DNA of 64,000 bases, from the NCBI GenBank assembly GCA_000431235.1, contig HF988729.1, positions 16,940 through 80,939 of the forward strand. Direction: 5' to 3'. Under the pieces are notes generated by a model. That model was not told the origin of the DNA. It saw nothing but the letters and a program-made list of their open reading frames with translations, and did no database searches. The stretch is from Coprobacillus sp. CAG:698 (GTDB lineage: Bacteria; Bacillota_I; Bacilli_A; ML615J-28; CAG-698). Made by a program: the position numbers and the translations under genes. Every line of letters starts with the position of its first letter. Position 1 is the first letter of the stretch. Below, in pieces: positions 5,707-57,991 of the stretch.

Positions 5707-5781
5707 GGTCCCATGGTCAAGCGGTTAAGACGAGACCCTCTCAAGGTCTAATCACGAGTTCGATTCTCGTTGGGATCACCA
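5707..5781 (+). tRNA. tRNA-Glu (anticodon CUC)
   Basis: Hand-folded cloverleaf. Acceptor GGTCCCA/TGGGATC, D-arm GTCAAGCGGTTAAGAC, anticodon stem AGACC/GGTCT with loop CTCTCAA, T-arm ACGAG-TTCGATT-CTCGT. CCA is encoded. Confidence 0.9.
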
Positions 5782-6158: not shown

Positions 6159-6242
6159 GCAAGAATGGTGAAATTGGTAGACACGCAAGATTCAGATTCT
6201 TGTATTAGAAATAATGTGTGGGTTCGAGTCCCATTTCTTGCA
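6159..6242 (+). tRNA. tRNA-Leu (anticodon CAG), long variable arm, CCA not encoded
   Basis: Acceptor GCAAGAA/TTCTTGC. Anticodon stem CAAGA/TCTTG with loop TTCAGAT. Variable arm ATTAGAAATAATGT. T-arm GTGGG-TTCGAGT-CCCAT. Confidence 0.9.
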
Positions 6243-22122: not shown

Positions 22123-22758
22123 ATGGCAACTACAAATGTTAATCCAACAAGAATGGAATTAACACGCCTCAAAAAAGAACTTGCCACTGCCAAAAGAGGA
22201 CATAAATTATTAAAAGACAAACAAGATGAAATGGTTCGTCAATTTATGATGCTAATAAGAACAAACCGTGAACTTAGATTAAACATTGAAAACAAACTTT
22301 CAAATGTGTCAGAAACATTTGCTCAAGCACGTTTGAAAATGAGTTATTCAGGTTTAATGGAAGCACTAATGGTACCTGCCAATGACGTCGTAATTGAAAC
22401 ATCATCGAAAACAATTATGAATATGTCTGTACCAAGTTTAAAGGTAGAAACAAGTGATTCTGTAGACATTACATATGGTTTTGCTTTTACACCATGTGAA
22501 CTTGATGATTCTGTTTTGGAATTATCAACACTTGTAGAGAAAATGGTAAAACTTGCTGAGATTGAAAAGTCATGTGATATGCTTGCGGTTGAAATCGAAA
22601 AAACAAGAAGGCGTGTAAATGCTATTGAATATGTTCTTATTCCTAATCTCGAAGAAAATATTCATTATATTACAATGAAACTTGAAGATAATGAAAGAAG
22701 TAATATTATTCGTTTAATGAAAAGTAAAGAAATTATCATGAAAAGAACAGAATCATAA
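22123..22758 (+). CDS. ntpD: V-type ATPase subunit D
   Basis: N-terminus NPTRMELTRLKKELATAKRGHKLLKDKQDE is typical of subunit D. Confidence 0.9.
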   Translation: MATTNVNPTRMELTRLKKELATAKRGHKLLKDKQDEMVRQFMMLIRTNRELRLNIENKLSNVSETFAQARLKMSYSGLMEALMVPANDVVIETSSKTIMNMSVPSLKVETSDSVDITYGFAFTPCELDDSVLELSTLVEKMVKLAEIEKSCDMLAVEIEKTRRRVNAIEYVLIPNLEENIHYITMKLEDNERSNIIRLMKSKEIIMKRTES

Positions 22759-22775
22759 TGGATTCTGTTTTTTTG
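22748..22775 (+). terminator. rho-independent terminator of the V-ATPase operon
   Basis: CAGAATC-ataatg-GATTCTG followed by TTTTTTT. Confidence 0.75.
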
Positions 22776-22839: not shown

Positions 22840-23574
22840 ATGATTTATAAAGTAAAAAGAAAAGTTACTGGTAGTATGGTTGATACCAAAGCTAATTTAT
22901 CTTTGTTAGGATTATGTGATGTGATTGTTGACACAATGTCAGAAATGTTAGGCTTATTAAAACTTGATGGATTATATGCTTTAAAGAATTACAATGCAAT
23001 GTGGGTCATTTCTAAAAACAAAATAAGAATCTTTGATGAAGCAAAATGGAATGAAAAACTTGAAGTAGAAAGTTTTATTTCTTCAACAACATTAGCTCGT
23101 ATAACAATTGATACAGTAATAAAAAAATTAGATAAGATAATAGCATATTCACGAATAGAAAGTTGCGCAATTGATTTACAATCAAGAAGAATAAGAAAAA
23201 CAAATACAATGGGTATTGATGATAATATTGTGATTGAAAATCCTTATAATTTTAATCAGTTTATCGAGACAGAAGGTGAGAGTAATGATTTAAATTTAGA
23301 ATTTACCCAAAAATCCCTATACACAAATATAGATTATCTTCATCATACAAATAATCTTGAATACATCAGAGTTTTATTAAATTCATTTACAGTTAAAGAA
23401 ATAGAAACTAAACCAATAAAACAAATAGAAATTAATTATAAAAATCAATCGTTTGAAAATGATTTGCTAGAAGTTTATAAAAATATATCAGAAAACATAT
23501 GTTTTTATGAAATTAAAGCAAATAATAAAAATAATGTAAAAGAAACAAAAGTAAATGGAAAAATATTTTTTTAA
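22840..23574 (+). CDS. acyl-ACP thioesterase-like (double hotdog) protein
   Basis: 244 aa. The second half carries the IDYLHHTNNLEYI motif, resembling D.D.n.HVNN.kYi of FatA/B-type thioesterases. Confidence 0.55.
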   Translation: MIYKVKRKVTGSMVDTKANLSLLGLCDVIVDTMSEMLGLLKLDGLYALKNYNAMWVISKNKIRIFDEAKWNEKLEVESFISSTTLARITIDTVIKKLDKIIAYSRIESCAIDLQSRRIRKTNTMGIDDNIVIENPYNFNQFIETEGESNDLNLEFTQKSLYTNIDYLHHTNNLEYIRVLLNSFTVKEIETKPIKQIEINYKNQSFENDLLEVYKNISENICFYEIKANNKNNVKETKVNGKIFF

Positions 23575-23661
23575 ATGTAAACGTTTTAAACAAATATTTT
23601 CTTGCATTTTATTTAATTTTGGTATATAATAGATGTATAAAAATGAAAGGAAAAATGTAGT

Positions 23662-23739
23662 ATGAAAAATAATAATTTAACATTCACAATGAACGCATTT
23701 TATTATTACTTTTACTTTCCAAGATTTGTCGCGCAATAA
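23662..23739 (+). promoter_or_regulatory. candidate leader-peptide ORF MKNNNLTFTMNAFYYYFYFPRFVAQ (attenuator sensor)
   Basis: 25 codons preceded by a weak RBS GAAAGGA (23645-23651). Seven consecutive Phe/Tyr codons at 23698-23718. Followed by alternative hairpins and a terminator (see findings). Confidence 0.5.
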
Positions 23740-23832
23740 CAGTCTTGGCTTTTTCCGATGGAAAAGTTTGATGTACTATTATTACTCGACAAAATAATGA
23801 AAAGTCGAGTAATAGCTCATCTATAAATCTTT

Positions 23833-23862
23833 GTGCTATTACCTATGTAGTAGCACTTTTTC
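23833..23862 (+). terminator. intrinsic terminator inside the 5' leader of the ABC operon (attenuator)
   Basis: GTGCTATTA-cctatg-TAGTAGCAC (one G-U pair) followed by TTTTTcaTTTTT. It lies 35 nt upstream of the ABC start codon. Confidence 0.7.
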
Positions 23863-23896
23863 ATTTTTATAAAAAAAAAAAAAGGAGACGAAAATT

Positions 23897-24898
23897 ATGA
23901 AAAAAATTATTCTATGTTTATTATGTGTTTTATGTTTGTGTGGATTAGTTGGTTGTAATCAAAAACAAAAACCTGCTGATATTATTGCAGGTGGTGGACA
24001 AGTTAAAATTGGAATCATTAAGTATGTTACTGCACCAGCTTTAGATAGTGCTCAAGAAGGGATTATTGAAGCTTTGGAAAAAGCAGGTTACAAAGATGGC
24101 GAAAAGATTAAAATTGTCAAATATGCTCCCGAAGGTGATCCATCAACATTATCACAAGTTTCTGAGATTGCTGTAAAAGAATGTGATCTAGTTTTCGCAA
24201 TTGCAACACCAGCTGTAAGTGAAGTAAAAGCAAAAATCTTAAAAACTGGTTTAGATGTTCCTGTTTTATTTACTGCTGTTACTGATCCAGTTTCCAAAGG
24301 TATTGTAGATTCACTAGAGAAAACAGGATGTAATATTAGTGGTACAAGTGATTTGAACCCAGTAGGTGATCAATTAGCGTTAATCACTGATTTAGCACCT
24401 GAAGCAAAAAAGGTAGGATATCTATATACTTCATCAGAAGATAATTCTGTTGTCCAACTTAATTTATTAAAAGCAAAGGCTAAAGAATTAAATTTAGAAG
24501 TAGTTACAAGAGCAATCACAAATTTAAGTGAACTAAAAATGGCAACAGAAGCGTTAGTTAGTGAAGGCATTGATGTTATTTATTTACCAACAGATAATCT
24601 AGTTAATTCTGCCTCAAAAACAGTACTAGATATAACAAACAAGAACAAAATACCATCAATATGTGCTGAAGAAGGTTATTTATCAAATGGTGGAACAATA
24701 ACTTTGAGTATTAATTACAAAGATTTAGGTATTCTAACTGGAGAAATGGCTGTGAAGATTATAAACGGAGAAGTAGAAGATGCAAGCAGTTTACCAGTTG
24801 GTAGTTTAACAAAGTTTGAATTAAAAATAAATGAAGAAGAAGCTAATAAGTATGGAATAGTTATTAGTGATGCAATAAAAGAAAAATTAAATAAATAG
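23897..24898 (+). CDS. ABC transporter substrate-binding lipoprotein, PF04392 (ABC_sub_bind / TrpX-like) family
   Basis: Signal peptide with lipobox LVGC. KIGIIKYVTAPALDSAQEG is a typical N-terminus of this family. RBS AAGGAGA. Confidence 0.75.
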   Translation: MKKIILCLLCVLCLCGLVGCNQKQKPADIIAGGGQVKIGIIKYVTAPALDSAQEGIIEALEKAGYKDGEKIKIVKYAPEGDPSTLSQVSEIAVKECDLVFAIATPAVSEVKAKILKTGLDVPVLFTAVTDPVSKGIVDSLEKTGCNISGTSDLNPVGDQLALITDLAPEAKKVGYLYTSSEDNSVVQLNLLKAKAKELNLEVVTRAITNLSELKMATEALVSEGIDVIYLPTDNLVNSASKTVLDITNKNKIPSICAEEGYLSNGGTITLSINYKDLGILTGEMAVKIINGEVEDASSLPVGSLTKFELKINEEEANKYGIVISDAIKEKLNK

Positions 24899-24909
24899 AG
24901 TGTGATTTT

Positions 24910-25848
24910 ATGAATATAATTGATATATTATCAACAGGAATTGAACAAGGTATTATTTGGGCAATTCTTGTAATTGGTGTTTATATAACATATAGAATTT
25001 TAGATATAGCTGATCTAAGCGTTGAAGGTACATTTCCTTTAGGAGCATGTACAGCAGCCCTTATGATTTATTTAGGAGTTAATCCAGTTATAGCATGCAT
25101 TATTTCTATGATAACAGGTATGATTGCTGGAGCTGTAACAGGCCTATTACATACTTCATTAAAAATACCAGCTATTATTTCAGGAATAATTGTTATGACT
25201 GCATTAACATCAGTTAATCTAGTTATTTTAGGCTTTGCTAATGAAAATTCTTCAGTACAGAGTGTACTAAATATTGATAAAAATATCTTTCAGGCGTTTT
25301 CAGAACTATTAACAAATAGTTTTAAGATACCTTTGCTTTATTCAAGTAAGATATCATCAATAATCATAGGATTAATATTCTTATTATTAATAAGTATATT
25401 AATATACTGGTTATTTGGAACTGAAATTGGAATGAGTATAAGAGCTACTGGAAACAACCCTAAGATGGCAAGAGCTCAAGGTATAAATACTAATTTAATG
25501 ATAATATTTGGTTTAATGTTAAGTAATGGCTTAATAGCTTTAAGTGGTGCTTTATATGCTCAAAACTCAGGTACAGCAATTGCTGACTGTGGAAGAGGAG
25601 CAATCATTATAGGGCTTGCTTCAATAATTATTGGTGAAATAATATTTAAACATAAAACTTTTAAGAGTTCACTTATTGCTATTATTATTGGAACAATAAT
25701 ATTCTTCATAATTAAACAAATAGCAATTAGAATGAATGTTGAACACTACTTGAATCTATTTACAGCAATTTTAATTACAGTTATTCTAGCAATGCCAGTA
25801 ATAAAATCAAAACTAATAAATAAAAAGAAGGTGGAAAATCATGCTTGA
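24910..25848 (+). CDS. ABC transporter permease (TrpY-like)
   Basis: Polytopic. Adjacent to the SBP and overlaps the ATPase gene. Confidence 0.8.
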   Translation: MNIIDILSTGIEQGIIWAILVIGVYITYRILDIADLSVEGTFPLGACTAALMIYLGVNPVIACIISMITGMIAGAVTGLLHTSLKIPAIISGIIVMTALTSVNLVILGFANENSSVQSVLNIDKNIFQAFSELLTNSFKIPLLYSSKISSIIIGLIFLLLISILIYWLFGTEIGMSIRATGNNPKMARAQGINTNLMIIFGLMLSNGLIALSGALYAQNSGTAIADCGRGAIIIGLASIIIGEIIFKHKTFKSSLIAIIIGTIIFFIIKQIAIRMNVEHYLNLFTAILITVILAMPVIKSKLINKKKVENHA

Positions 25849-26599
25849 GATATCAAATATAACTAAAATATTTAATAAAGAAGAAGGAATCGAATATCAA
25901 AAGAAAGCATTAGATTGTGTTAACCTTGTTGTTGAAGATGGAGATTTCGTTAGTGTAATTGGAGGAAATGGTAGTGGTAAAAGTACCCTTATGAACATCA
26001 TTTCTGGAGTATATAAACCTGATAGTGGTTATATTAAAATTGATGGTGAAGATATAACAATGCTTAGTGAAAGTAAAAGAGCAAGCTATTTAGGAAGAGT
26101 TTTTCAAGATCCTCTTATGCTAACTTGTGCTAATATGTCAATAATTGAAAATATGGAATTAGCTTCAAGAAGAGGTGAAAAGCAAACCTTTAAATGGGGA
26201 TTTAAAAAAACTAACGAAATACTATTCAAAGAGGAACTTAAAAGATTAAATTTAAATCTTGAGAATAGACTAGAACAAAAAGTTGGCTTACTATCTGGTG
26301 GTCAAAGACAAGCAGTAACCTTATTGATGGCAACGCTAAAAAAGCCTAAACTATTATTATTAGATGAGCATACTGCTGCTCTTGATCCTAAAACTGCCAA
26401 AAAAGTTTTAGAATTAACAGAAAAAATAGTAACTGAAAATAAGATAACTACATTTATGATTACTCATAATATGAAAGATGCCTTAAGATATGGAAATAGA
26501 CTAGTGATGCTAAATGGTGGTAAAATAGTTTTAGATGCAAAAGGAGAAGAAAAAGCTAAATTAACAATTGATGATTTGTTAGAAAAGTTTGAAGCATAA
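25841..26599 (+). CDS. ABC transporter ATP-binding protein (TrpZ-like)
   Basis: Walker A GGNGSGKST, signature LSGGQRQ, Walker B LLLLDEHTAALD. Confidence 0.9.
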   Translation: MLEISNITKIFNKEEGIEYQKKALDCVNLVVEDGDFVSVIGGNGSGKSTLMNIISGVYKPDSGYIKIDGEDITMLSESKRASYLGRVFQDPLMLTCANMSIIENMELASRRGEKQTFKWGFKKTNEILFKEELKRLNLNLENRLEQKVGLLSGGQRQAVTLLMATLKKPKLLLLDEHTAALDPKTAKKVLELTEKIVTENKITTFMITHNMKDALRYGNRLVMLNGGKIVLDAKGEEKAKLTIDDLLEKFEA

Positions 26600-26700: not shown

Positions 26701-26729
26701 TTGACAATGGTTTATATTTATGTTATAAT
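26701..26729 (+). promoter_or_regulatory. consensus sigma-70 promoter TTGACA-17-TGtTATAAT
   Basis: TTGACA 26701-26706, 17-nt spacer, TATAAT 26724-26729 preceded by TGt. Confidence 0.6.
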
Positions 26730-26752: not shown

Positions 26753-27490
26753 ATGAAGGAATTTCTAAAAAAATATAAAGAAAAAATAATCAAACTTTTG
26801 ATAGCAATATTTACATTAATATTAATTTCGGTCTTAGTAATGGTTTTATTGCTAGCTTTTAATGTAATATATTATGATTCAGGATTTCATTTCAATGAAG
26901 AATTATTTAATTGGTTTAAAAACTCATGGTTTGGAATAGTTTTATATGTACTTGTACAGTGTATATTAACATCTGCTTTATGTGTTATACCAGGTTCATC
27001 GATGGCATTTATTCTCTTAAGTACATTTATTTATGGTGAGCCATGGAAAGCATTTTTACTATCTTTTGCTGGTGTTATCCTTTCGAGTGCGACAATGTAT
27101 GCTATAGGTCGTTTTGGTGGTTATAAACTATGTTCAAAACTTTTAGGCAAGGAAGATTGCGAAAAGTCATTAGAACTTTTACGTAATAAAGGAACTGTGT
27201 ATTTTCCACTAATGATGGTATTTCCACTTTTTCCTGATGATGCTTTGGTAATGATAGCTGGAACTACCAAAATGAGTTTAAAATGGTTTATTCCTTCAAT
27301 TATCTTTGGCCGTGGCATTGGAATTGCTACAATTGTTTTTGGAATACATATAGTTCCATTTGAAGAGTTCACAACTCTTTATGATTGGATTGTATTTATT
27401 ACTATATGTGCTTTTTGGATAATTTTAATCTTTTATTTAGCACATTTACTAAATGTATATTTAGATAAAAAAAGAAAAGAAAATAAATAA
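26753..27490 (+). CDS. TVP38/TMEM64 (VTT/DedA-related) family membrane protein
   Basis: Polytopic. Motif PGSSMAFILLSTFIYGEPW...YAIGRFGG. Confidence 0.7.
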   Translation: MKEFLKKYKEKIIKLLIAIFTLILISVLVMVLLLAFNVIYYDSGFHFNEELFNWFKNSWFGIVLYVLVQCILTSALCVIPGSSMAFILLSTFIYGEPWKAFLLSFAGVILSSATMYAIGRFGGYKLCSKLLGKEDCEKSLELLRNKGTVYFPLMMVFPLFPDDALVMIAGTTKMSLKWFIPSIIFGRGIGIATIVFGIHIVPFEEFTTLYDWIVFITICAFWIILIFYLAHLLNVYLDKKRKENK

Positions 27491-27530: not shown

Positions 27531-27790
27531 ATAATAAAAACTTTGAAGAGAAGAGTAATAAAACAAAACTTTTGTAGAGAGTTCTCGTTTGGTGCAAGAG
27601 AATAAAGTTAGAGTTTATGAAGATGGCCTCTGAGTTGGGTTTCTGAAATTTGAGTAGGAAATCTCGGGTTTGCCCGTTATCGCAAAAGAACTTGTTAGAG
27701 TTTGAAATAGGCATGCTGTTTAGGCATTGTGAAAAAGGTTGGTACCACGTGATTATATATCTCGTCCTTGTTATAGGGCGAGATTTTTAA
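27531..27790 (+). promoter_or_regulatory. T-box leader, probable Met (AUG) specifier, with terminator
   Basis: AGAGAG bulge 27576-27581, distal-loop GGTGCAAG, candidate specifier ATG-A 27617-27620. T-box sequence AAGGTTGGTACCACGTG ~27735-27751. Terminator ATCTCGTCC/GGGCGAGAT 27759-27784 plus a T-run. Promoter TTGCTT-17-TATAAT at 27496-27524. Confidence 0.8.
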
Positions 27791-57780: not shown

Positions 57781-57850
57781 TTAAATAATAAAAATAACTA
57801 AATTAAATAAAAATAATAAAATAATCCATAAAAATAAAATAGTTTGATTA

Positions 57851-57979
57851 TTCGCCGTAGACAGTAGGTGCGTAAAGCTTAATTTCCTACCGAGGTTACA
57901 TAATTAGATTAAAATGATCTAATTATAAAAAAGTTCTCTTTACCTCTTTTTGTCTATGCAAAAAGAGGTTTATTTTTTC
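57851..57979 (+). promoter_or_regulatory. rplJ (L10) leader with attenuator terminator
   Basis: Structured leader GCCGTAGACAGTAGG...CCTACCGAGG. Then the hairpin ACCTCTTTTTG-tctatg-CAAAAAGAGGT (57942-57969) plus a T-run, just before the rplJ RBS. Position and architecture resemble the Bacillota L10 leader. Confidence 0.55.
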
Positions 57980-57991
57980 AAGGAGGTAAAA

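Follow-up and report, generated by a model that had tools for sequence, protein, structure and literature searches.

A probable tyrosine-responsive leader-peptide attenuator ahead of a predicted tyrosine importer in an uncultured member of the Bacilli

Introduction

Upstream of a three-gene ATP-binding cassette (ABC) operon in a 64-kb stretch of DNA from Coprobacillus sp. CAG:698 (64,000 nucleotides of contig HF988729.1, the whole of which is called the window here), an uncultured member of the Bacilli whose DNA is AT-rich (28% GC in the window), lies what is probably a ribosome-mediated leader-peptide transcription attenuator, in which charged tRNA-Tyr, and less so charged tRNA-Phe, would control read-through into a predicted tyrosine importer. 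The RpoB of the host shares 74-76% identity with that of metagenome-assembled genomes labelled “Bacilli bacterium” and “Acholeplasmataceae bacterium”. All leader elements are held in a 322-nt spacer that separates an acyl-ACP (acyl carrier protein) thioesterase gene (22840-23574) from the operon (23897-26599), which lies on the forward strand, as do the leader features described below. They comprise a short open reading frame (ORF) led by a Shine-Dalgarno (SD) sequence, a run of cognate codons, an intrinsic terminator and an exclusive antiterminator with ribosome-dependent segments; they are conserved in relatives, their helices co-vary and exclude one another, and their spacing is compatible with the footprint of a ribosome. 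We infer from this arrangement that the ORF is translated, that ribosomes stall within it, that a hairpin pauses the polymerase, and that the switch responds to tyrosine. An earlier interpretation of this DNA, made from its letters without database searches (the sequence-only reading), had proposed attenuation through a Tyr/Phe-rich leader peptide, and is supported here by the conservation of the ORF and its codon run, compensatory changes in the helices, the lack of any Rfam match, and a predicted switch of fold; each refuting condition named with it that lends itself to computation turned out in its favour.

The leader ORF and its tyrosine codons

The leader ORF (23662-23739) encodes MKNNNLTFTMNAFYYYFYFPRFVAQ* in 25 codons followed by TAA, and its ATG is preceded at 10 nt by the SD sequence GAAAGGA (23645-23651), invariant in an alignment (A1) of eight close relatives. 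Codons 13-19 (23698-23718), which read TTT TAT TAT TAC TTT TAC TTT (F Y Y Y F Y F), make up the regulatory codon run, the proposed site of ribosome stalling; SD, ATG, ORF and the seven consecutive aromatic codons are all present as first described. Beside the leader start, two further details may be recorded: a minimal start-stop ORF, AUG UAG, abuts it (23655-23664; AUGUAGUAUG), and a string there, UGUAGUAUGAAAA, is invariant in the eight closest relatives, resembles the 3′ arm of the terminator (UGUAGUAGCAC) and is able to pair with UAUUAC modules in predicted folds.

The DNA compared with the window consisted of loci around homologues of the operon’s substrate-binding protein (SBP), 95, 88, 79, 71, 69, 59, 51 and 49% identical to it, and of 80 metagenomic loci, the taxonomic range of these relatives being gauged from GC content and a few names only. 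In about 24 distinct sequences, a scan for aromatic-rich small ORFs located the device ahead of the SBP gene, and since these sequences range from 27 to 50% GC, AT-richness does not explain it. A search of genome contigs with the SBP returned only distant relatives (33-41% identity), none with the leader. The upstream region is conserved throughout the close set, where the mini-ORF carries indels of 9 and 12 nt that keep the frame, and relatives whose SBP is as little as about 38% identical still have both mini-ORF and aromatic run, in frame and with indels in multiples of three. In each of the 21 distinct leaders, an SD-like purine tract precedes by 7-10 nt the ATG of an ORF of 19-27 codons, the other two frames being open over its span in only one and three of them.

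Homologous runs extend over 5-9 codons in the roughly 24 leaders. Their codons, counted in 21 leaders, are TAT (68), TAC (47), TTT (30), AGC (2) and TTC (1), which makes tyrosine 115 of 148 (78% Tyr, 21% Phe). TAT and TAC interchange freely and Phe is the sole common replacement, while the single-base neighbours of Tyr codons (those for Asn, His, Asp, Cys and Ser, and stop) are absent from the runs except for the two AGC. This pattern of substitution, synonymous between TAT and TAC and otherwise mostly to Phe, points to selection on codon identity, and the signal sensed is probably, to judge by the codons, mainly tyrosine. Examples of the peptides are MMKKLNSIVMSKSYYYYYYFPRVVR (locus L020), MKNQQLNSATLRYYYYYYYAPSMFR (L023), MKIRSFAQSYYYYYYPRKIV (L025) and MMKLVKVNYYYYYYFPRRCRG (L067); in two contigs of about 50% GC, L042 and L077, they are MIYRTNIKSSAFYYSYYYYPSRSFPKS and MNRKNIIRTSAYYYSYYYYYRLKIVSQ.

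RNA segments and mutually exclusive helices

Downstream of the run, the leader contains segments that can pair in alternative ways. Seg1 (UGUCGCGCAAUAACAGU, 23727-23743) spans the last four codons, the stop codon and 4 further nt; the sequence-only reading had recognised its GTCGCGCAATAA and placed it at 23727-23738, the correct coordinates being 23728-23739. Seg2 (ACUAUUAUUACUCGACA, 23775-23791) pairs with seg1 in the ON state or with seg3 in the OFF state, and seg3 (GUCGAGUAAUAGC, 23804-23816) pairs with seg2 as an anti-antiterminator or with seg4 as an antiterminator. The cores first delimited for seg2 and seg3 (23780-23790 and 23804-23814) stand, and so do GTAATAGC (23809-23816), within seg3, and its complement GCTATTAC (23835-23842). 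The intrinsic terminator (23833-23868) is made up of seg4 (GUGCUAUUAC, 23833-23842), a loop, seg5 (GUAGUAGCAC, 23847-23856) and UUUUUCAUUUUU (23857-23868); its stem (23833-23856; 10 bp, -11.8 kcal/mol), followed by TTTTTCATTTTT, was evident in the sequence and was called independently by a terminator scan. The helix between seg1 and seg2 (1:2), which joins 23727-23743 to 23775-23791, exists as proposed but is longer than the 4+1+5 bp originally drawn, with 14 of 17 positions paired and -9.4 kcal/mol. The 2:3 and 3:4 hairpins reach -13.7 and -10.0 kcal/mol, and their binding sites on seg3 overlap by 9 nt.

The critical helix is 1:2. It was tested by taking from each leader the sequence that follows the run, as far as the 3′ arm of hairpin P1 (described below), and seeking its best pairing site up to the terminator. 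Without exception this site is the 5′ arm of the hairpin that comes next, and in most leaders the pairing is better than in shuffled sequences. Added up over 16 lineages, the duplexes of seg1 with its cognate seg2 come to -218 kcal/mol, whereas permuted partners give -137 ± 10 kcal/mol (p<5e-5). The variable part of seg2, which lies 3′ of a UUAUUAC core, is UCGAC in the window and UUGAC, AUGAC, GAACAA, GAGACAUA, ACGAU, AGAGGCA, AGACAUCU or AUGAUAUCU in other lineages, and the whole of seg2 differs in GC-richer leaders (GGAAACGAU, GAGAAACGA). Each time, the final codons of the leader complement the variable part of the lineage’s own seg2, with pairs such as UCGAC/GUCG, AUGAC/GUCAU, GAACAA/UUGUUC, ACGAU/AUCGU and GGAAACGAU/AUCGUUUCC. 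The same site in seg2 pairs with seg3 (z of -4 to -7), and in most leaders 9-13 nt of seg3 are common to its 2:3 and 3:4 pairings.

The covariation check suggested with the sequence-only reading also yields compensatory changes in the other helices. Aligned with MAFFT, 18 leaders show 97.9% pairing over the P1, 2:3-core and terminator helices taken together, with six pairs changed on both sides. In P1, 95% of cells are paired, with compensatory changes; the terminator stem is 98.9% paired, three of its pairs being changed on both sides; and the 3:4 core is 99.3% paired, with one pair that is AU in 10, GC in 7 and GU in 1. A private A-U to G-C compensatory change occurs in 2:3 of L025. All group-A leaders have an intrinsic terminator.

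The conserved RNA invites the thought that it acts by itself, as a riboswitch or as a binding site for a protein or tRNA-Tyr, its UAUUAC/GUAAUA modules being functional and the ORF incidental. The whole leader is indeed strongly structured, folding much more stably than shuffles (z = -5.5), and the blocks GUUAUUAC and GUAAUAAC, which hold the Tyr codon UAC and an anticodon-like GUA, are conserved far beyond the needs of pairing. Yet segments that must each serve two pairing partners would be expected to be so conserved, and a purely RNA-based switch would not account for the conservation of SD, ATG, frame, ORF length and stop position with the alternative frames closed. Moreover, L042 and L077, the leaders of about 50% GC, retain the Tyr run despite downstream segments of entirely different sequence, and T-box or other Rfam signatures are lacking. 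We give a switch of this kind a very slim chance.

Hairpin P1 and the position of the ribosome

Hairpin P1 (23719-23748; 8 bp, -7.1 kcal/mol), with its 5′ arm CCAAGAUU at 23719-23726 and its 3′ arm AGUCUUGG at 23741-23748, enlarges the CCAAGA/TCTTGG hairpin (23719-23724 and 23743-23748) noticed earlier. Its 5′ arm is formed by the Pro-Arg codons directly 3′ of the run, and its loop contains seg1 and the stop codon. Directly after it comes a U-tract, CUUUUUC, which forms with GGAAAAG a second small hairpin at 23749-23766, likewise noticed earlier (as 23750-23766). Nearly all leaders have P1, with the stop codon in or beside its loop, and the four Us after it are invariant in 18 and in 20 leaders even though their local 3′ partner GGAAAAG is not conserved, which is why we read P1 and the U-tract as a hairpin-dependent pause signal. 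P1 and its invariant U-tract belong to the core of the device and are no incidental small hairpin. A covariance model (R1) of run, P1 and U-tract finds one copy in the window (71.9 bits) and no second, and in 95 sources matches leader-bearing loci only, with none in loci that lack the leader.

The spacing of these elements suits a switch set by the position of the ribosome. Counted from the first base of the last aromatic codon, seg1 starts 9-12 nt downstream; counted from that of the stop codon, its end lies no further than 11 nt downstream in 19 of 19 leaders. The mRNA channel of the ribosome reaches about 12 nt 3′ of the A site, so that a terminating ribosome would mask seg1; a ribosome held in the run would, by the same geometry, leave seg1 outside its footprint and cover the 5′ arm of P1.

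Folding models were informative when the nascent RNA was folded from the leading edge of the ribosome to two bases past the 5′ arm of the terminator, although models of this thermodynamic kind take no account of kinetics or of trailing ribosomes. With the A site at codon 17 of the window leader, the minimum free energy structure is exactly 1:2 plus 3:4, and the terminator arm is paired with a probability of 0.66; with the ribosome at the stop codon, 2:3 forms, the terminator arm is free, and the probability is 0.21. Nascent-RNA folding thereby reproduces the two states of the sequence-only reading. Over 20 leaders the mean probability that the arm is paired is 0.84 with the ribosome in the run and 0.61 at the stop (Wilcoxon p = 2e-4), and it drops progressively toward the stop (from 0.82 to 0.21 in L050, from 0.91 to 0.37 in L014 and from 0.90 to 0.46 in L023).

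Geometry also bears on whether the leader might instead encode a TnaC-like arrest peptide, whose nascent YYY..FPR would arrest the ribosome when it senses free tyrosine or some other small molecule; the importer would then be induced by the presence of tyrosine and not by its scarcity. Proline is frequent in arrest motifs, and an F/Y-P-R motif is conserved after the run in most leaders; substrate induction is also conceivable for this transporter family, as Clostridioides difficile imports tyrosine for fermentation to p-cresol (PMC6816091). The PR codons, however, are explained by the RNA, CCAAGR being the 5′ arm of P1. P1 is kept where PR is changed to APS, LNQ, LRG, PSR or RLK (L023, L029, L034, L042 and L077), from which we conclude that conservation of PR reflects a constraint on the RNA, and outside the run the peptide is not conserved, PR having been lost in those five lineages. 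A run of 5-9 like codons is a hallmark of sensing tRNA charging, whereas TnaC relies on single key residues, and the geometry of the RNA places the stall in the run, not at the stop codon, unlike in a TnaC-type leader. An arrest peptide is thus very unlikely, and we retain attenuation by tRNA charging.

Two sets of side observations concern the run and the RNA around it. In some lineages a conserved “anti-run” box follows just after P1 and the U-tract (GUAAGUCAUAAUUUAAA in L034, L040, L050 and L067; UAGUCAUAAUAGAC in L042 and L077), which complements the last part of the Tyr run (AUUAU-ACU) but for one C.U mismatch, identical in two divergent groups. Such a box might keep an untranslated leader in the OFF fold; the window lineage has no obvious equivalent. 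The Tyr run, which shares the UAUUAC module with seg2 and seg4, may double as an RNA arm, as the anti-run box AGUCAUAAU of some lineages suggests; the switch as a whole would then consist of three copies of one hairpin, with the ribosome reading the first arm. Separately, seg2:seg3 and seg4:seg5 are near-duplicates of one hairpin (GUGUUAUUAC...GUAAUAACAC; 23698-23856, alignment A3), and the Tyr run (UAUUAUUAC) together with seg1 resembles a third copy. The attenuator looks as if it had been derived from its terminator by tandem duplication.

The operon and its predicted cargo

The operon encodes a PF04392 substrate-binding lipoprotein (23897-24898; PF04392 E 8e-67), a BPD_transp_2 permease (24910-25848) and an ABC ATPase (25841-26599), all assigned with Pfam. 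The importer was initially described as TrpX-like, of which the PF04392 ABC family holds while the TrpX subtype does not: the nearest solved structure to the SBP is C. difficile CD0873 (PDB 6HNI, E 1e-58), of the tyrosine type. CD0873 was crystallised with tyrosine and, among 20 amino acids, is stabilised by tyrosine only; its Glu-263, replaced by Ala in Phe- and Trp-binding homologues, hydrogen-bonds the Tyr hydroxyl, and its Tyr-279 keeps Trp out (PMC6816091). E258 and Y274 of the window SBP align with these two residues and are invariant across 14 orthologues. Having both the PF04392 domain and the equivalents of Glu-263 and Tyr-279 that mark the CD0873 (Tyr) subtype, the window system is predicted to be a tyrosine importer of CD0873 type, and a Tyr-dominated run ahead of a Tyr-type importer is what uptake induced by starvation would lead one to expect. 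The Tyr-specific Glu does not discriminate loci with the leader from those without, because nearly all retrieved SBPs have E or D at that position, plus Y.

Proposed mechanism and points against it

In the mechanism that we propose, transcription would start at about 23637 and the leader ORF would be translated while RNA polymerase advances, the polymerase being held briefly at P1 and the U-tract (23719-23755) until the ribosome catches up. With ample Tyr-tRNA, the ribosome would reach the stop codon with its footprint over seg1 (23727-23743) and the 3′ arm of P1; with seg1 covered, seg2:seg3 and seg4:seg5 would pair and transcription would terminate at 23857-23868 (OFF). Absence of translation would have the same outcome, with P1 sequestering seg1. 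When Tyr-tRNA is scarce, the ribosome would stall in the run (23698-23718), its leading edge covering or melting the 5′ arm of P1 and leaving seg1 free; seg1 would then capture the emerging seg2, seg3 would pair with seg4, the terminator would be blocked and the importer genes would be transcribed (ON).

Several observations weigh against this mechanism. One group concerns the window itself, where F/Y runs of at least five codons with at least three Y number six in the six frames against about 2.4 in shuffles; the caveat, raised at the outset, that TTT and TAT are common in AT-rich DNA is therefore valid for the window alone, where the aromatic run is not significant, and its significance derives from conservation in relatives. 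The window run is also the most Phe-rich copy in the family, with four Tyr and three Phe codons. Its 1:2 helix, whose weakness had likewise been pointed out in advance, is among the family’s weakest (three mismatches, shuffle p = 0.08) and is less stable than 2:3 (-9.4 against -13.7 kcal/mol), which implies that the switch must be kinetic.

A second group comes from the folding models and the alignment. Equilibrium folding of the full leader with ribosome masks gives the terminator a probability of about 0.99 in every state, an equilibrium win that is usual for attenuators, which act kinetically. A first truncated model that kept the 5′ leader gave no clean switch, being confounded by pairing between seg4 and the start-codon region, and for several relatives the prediction leaves the terminator arm paired although the ribosome is at the stop codon. 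Structure prediction is noisy because of the promiscuous pairing of the AU-rich UAUUAC/GUAAUA modules, and most core pairs are invariant, so that classical covariation is thin outside 1:2; such invariance is expected of segments that must each fit two partners.

Two further points come from other organisms. The leader of the CD0873 operon of C. difficile, the sole relative to have been characterised, contains a 17-codon ORF, MKTLLNKQVRFFSSQFS, with no Tyr run. In Bacillus subtilis, transcription outruns translation (Johnson 2020, as cited in PMC7858274), and “runaway” transcription of this type is thought to disfavour ribosome-coupled control (PMC7858274, PMC13323073), a difficulty for the proposed switch unless the putative pause re-synchronises the two machines. 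Such a pause, dedicated to bringing ribosome and polymerase back into step in a phylum thought to favour runaway transcription, may be what the invariant P1 and U-tract provide in these organisms.

The predicted promoter and an upstream box

The promoter and transcription start are predicted. A promoter-like site at 23602-23630 consists of TTGCAT (23602-23607), a 17-nt spacer and TATAAT (23625-23630), and its positions are kept in eight orthologous leaders. Its -35 hexamer agrees with TTGACA at 3 of 6 positions, and the site fell below the threshold of a consensus promoter scan and so went unlisted, for which reasons conservation in relatives is the better evidence for it. Of the extended -10 element first proposed (TGgTATATAAT, 23620-23630), the TATAAT stands, but the TG (23620-23621) is out of extended -10 register, and the hexamer is better accounted for by its 17-nt spacing to TTGCAT.

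Sixteen nt upstream of the -35 lies a conserved box, TGTAAACGTTT (23576-23586), invariant in alignment A1 and present as a single exact copy in the window. L007-L019, L023 and L066 each have one copy, upstream of the leader promoter; of these, L023 and L066 are distant. We take it to resemble a half-palindrome or operator of cre/LacI type (13 of 14 positions of the cre consensus), and it may be the operator for a second layer of control by a transcription factor. One could go further and place the real control at the promoter, through this box, with the terminator merely leaky and constitutive and the mini-ORF encoding a small peptide or going unused. That the box is invariant and tied to the promoter even in distant relatives would fit, as would the preference of equilibrium folding for the terminator in every case, but such a scheme leaves unexplained the lineage-specific co-variation of 1:2, the overlapping 2:3 and 3:4 sites and the fixed position of the stop codon in seg1, and many leaders keep the attenuator without the box. 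We judge it highly improbable as a replacement for attenuation, although promoter control and attenuation could act together.

Other features of the window

Downstream of the operon, a perfect promoter (TTGACA-17-TATAAT with TG, 26701-26729) precedes a gene for a VTT/DedA-family membrane protein (26753-27490), which adjoins the ABC operon also in L007, L009, L011 and L014, indicating conserved synteny. A T-box leader precedes metN of metNIQ (27534-27771; Rfam, 116.5 bits), 3.7 kb downstream of the leader. Rfam matches at gathering score further include a ribosomal protein L10 leader (57837-57983) and two tRNA genes (5707-5778 and 6159-6242). Upstream, a 14-bp hairpin after the V-ATPase D gene (22741-22774) has a terminator score on both strands.

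Wider meaning

A bolder and distinctly tentative proposal is that the leader is the founding example of an uncatalogued, widespread group of Tyr-specific leader-peptide attenuators in Bacillota, the first dedicated to tyrosine and to an amino-acid importer, the P1 pause and the double-duty run included. Attenuation as proposed here would add tyrosine to the short list of amino acids sensed by leader-peptide attenuation, extend the mechanism to an uptake system, and suggest that it is in regular use in several uncultured lineages of Bacillota, beside T-boxes in the same genome. It would also supply a regulatory argument, independent of structure, for tyrosine import by this subfamily of PF04392, and so help to annotate thousands of genes now labelled “ABC transporter substrate-binding protein”. 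At about 200 nt, the device would be a compact natural sensor of Tyr-tRNA and a possible reporter part, and the pause at P1 and the U-tract, if true, would offer a handle on the synchronisation of transcription and translation in Bacillota.

Comparison with known systems

Searching 23500-23960 against Rfam, as had been recommended in order to exclude a known leader, gave no match at the gathering threshold and, at E<=10, only mir-316 (E 3.5) and tsr24 (E 5.1), which are noise; 19 related leaders gave no match either. The catalogued leaders (Phe, Trp, His, Leu, Thr and others) were rejected for want of a covariance-model match, as was the T-box (RF00230), with none at E<=10 in the same interval, in keeping with the earlier remark that the leader has no T-box motif, while the metN T-box of the window was readily found. 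TRAP-like triplet repeats were considered and rejected on inspection of the sequence. In the full-text literature, of which journal coverage is incomplete, we found neither a described Tyr-run leader nor a PF04392 transporter reported to be controlled by a leader peptide.

Two other leaders came to light among the loci compared. The C. difficile CD0873 operon, which differs from that of the window in its order permease-ATPase-SBP-SBP, has upstream of the permease a leader of about 420 nt (L105, 3840-4260) with the SD-led MKTLLNKQVRFFSSQFS ORF, two hairpins sharing ACUGUGUGG, a terminator (CCAUACAG...CUGUGUGG plus U7) and no Rfam match; it may be a different, undescribed attenuator of a characterised tyrosine importer. 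In L086-L102 (GC about 0.41), a separate leader family lies 270-470 nt upstream of the SBP gene, with an ORF, MLNKATHLGNLKAFYYFSFFR, that has two Tyr and four Phe codons and a stop immediately 3′ of the run; a strong hairpin and a terminator (AACCAGUUGGGCCUGUCCUAACUGGUU) come next. At these loci the SBPs have Asp, not Glu, at the Tyr-OH position, and the two loci scanned (L086 and L091) had no Rfam match.

The closest mechanistic parallels are the Escherichia coli leaders pheL-pheA, pheST and trpL, of which pheL bears an aromatic codon run (PMC3082878). They share with the window leader an SD-led short ORF, a cognate codon run, a terminator 5′ arm with an alternative upstream partner, and, as proposed here, the selection of the fold by the position of the ribosome, in the run or at the stop. 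The window leader differs from them in its Tyr-dominated run, in its target, an importer and not a biosynthetic or aminoacyl-tRNA synthetase gene, and in its host, a member of the Bacillota; there is no sequence or Rfam similarity. It also has an extra layer, P1 enclosing seg1 ahead of a chain of 1:2, 2:3, 3:4 and 4:5 pairings, and its stalled ribosome would free seg1 instead of covering segment 1.

Leader-peptide attenuation had been called classically proteobacterial, and it is rare in Bacillota, but precedents exist there. Firmicutes attenuators predicted or shown include the His leader of hisS/hisZ and of his operons, found in the B. cereus group, Peptostreptococcaceae and Erysipelotrichales, and the Leu-rich ilv peptide of Staphylococcus aureus (PMC2965389, PMC9413887, PMC5794164). 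Like the attenuation proposed for the window, these represent classical leader-peptide attenuation beside or replacing T-boxes in Bacillota; they differ from the window leader in amino acid (His, Leu), in target and in sequence, which is unrelated. The closest aromatic case outside Proteobacteria is the aroR leader upstream of aroF in Corynebacterium glutamicum, with Phe-Tyr-Phe codons and attenuation of aromatic amino-acid genes (PMC11802643, citing Neshat 2014). It is reported to respond to Phe and not to Tyr; unlike the window leader, it has three codons, controls biosynthesis and belongs to the Actinobacteria.

Within the transporter family itself, the known alternative is the T-box. The PF04392 importer operon trpXYZ of Streptococcus suis is T-box controlled (PMC9382623), and in L055 the orthologous SBP gene is preceded by a T-box (1047-1300, 113.9 bits) instead of the leader, its specifier reading GUU (Val) or, shifted by one base, UUC (Phe), followed by C in place of the usual purine. 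The S. suis system resembles that proposed for the window in the family of the transporter and in induction on uncharged cognate tRNA through a choice between terminator and antiterminator; the window sensor would be a ribosome translating a codon run, and not direct binding of tRNA. T-boxes at L055 and at S. suis trpXYZ thus point to the same logic of induction by starvation, exercised through another sensor.

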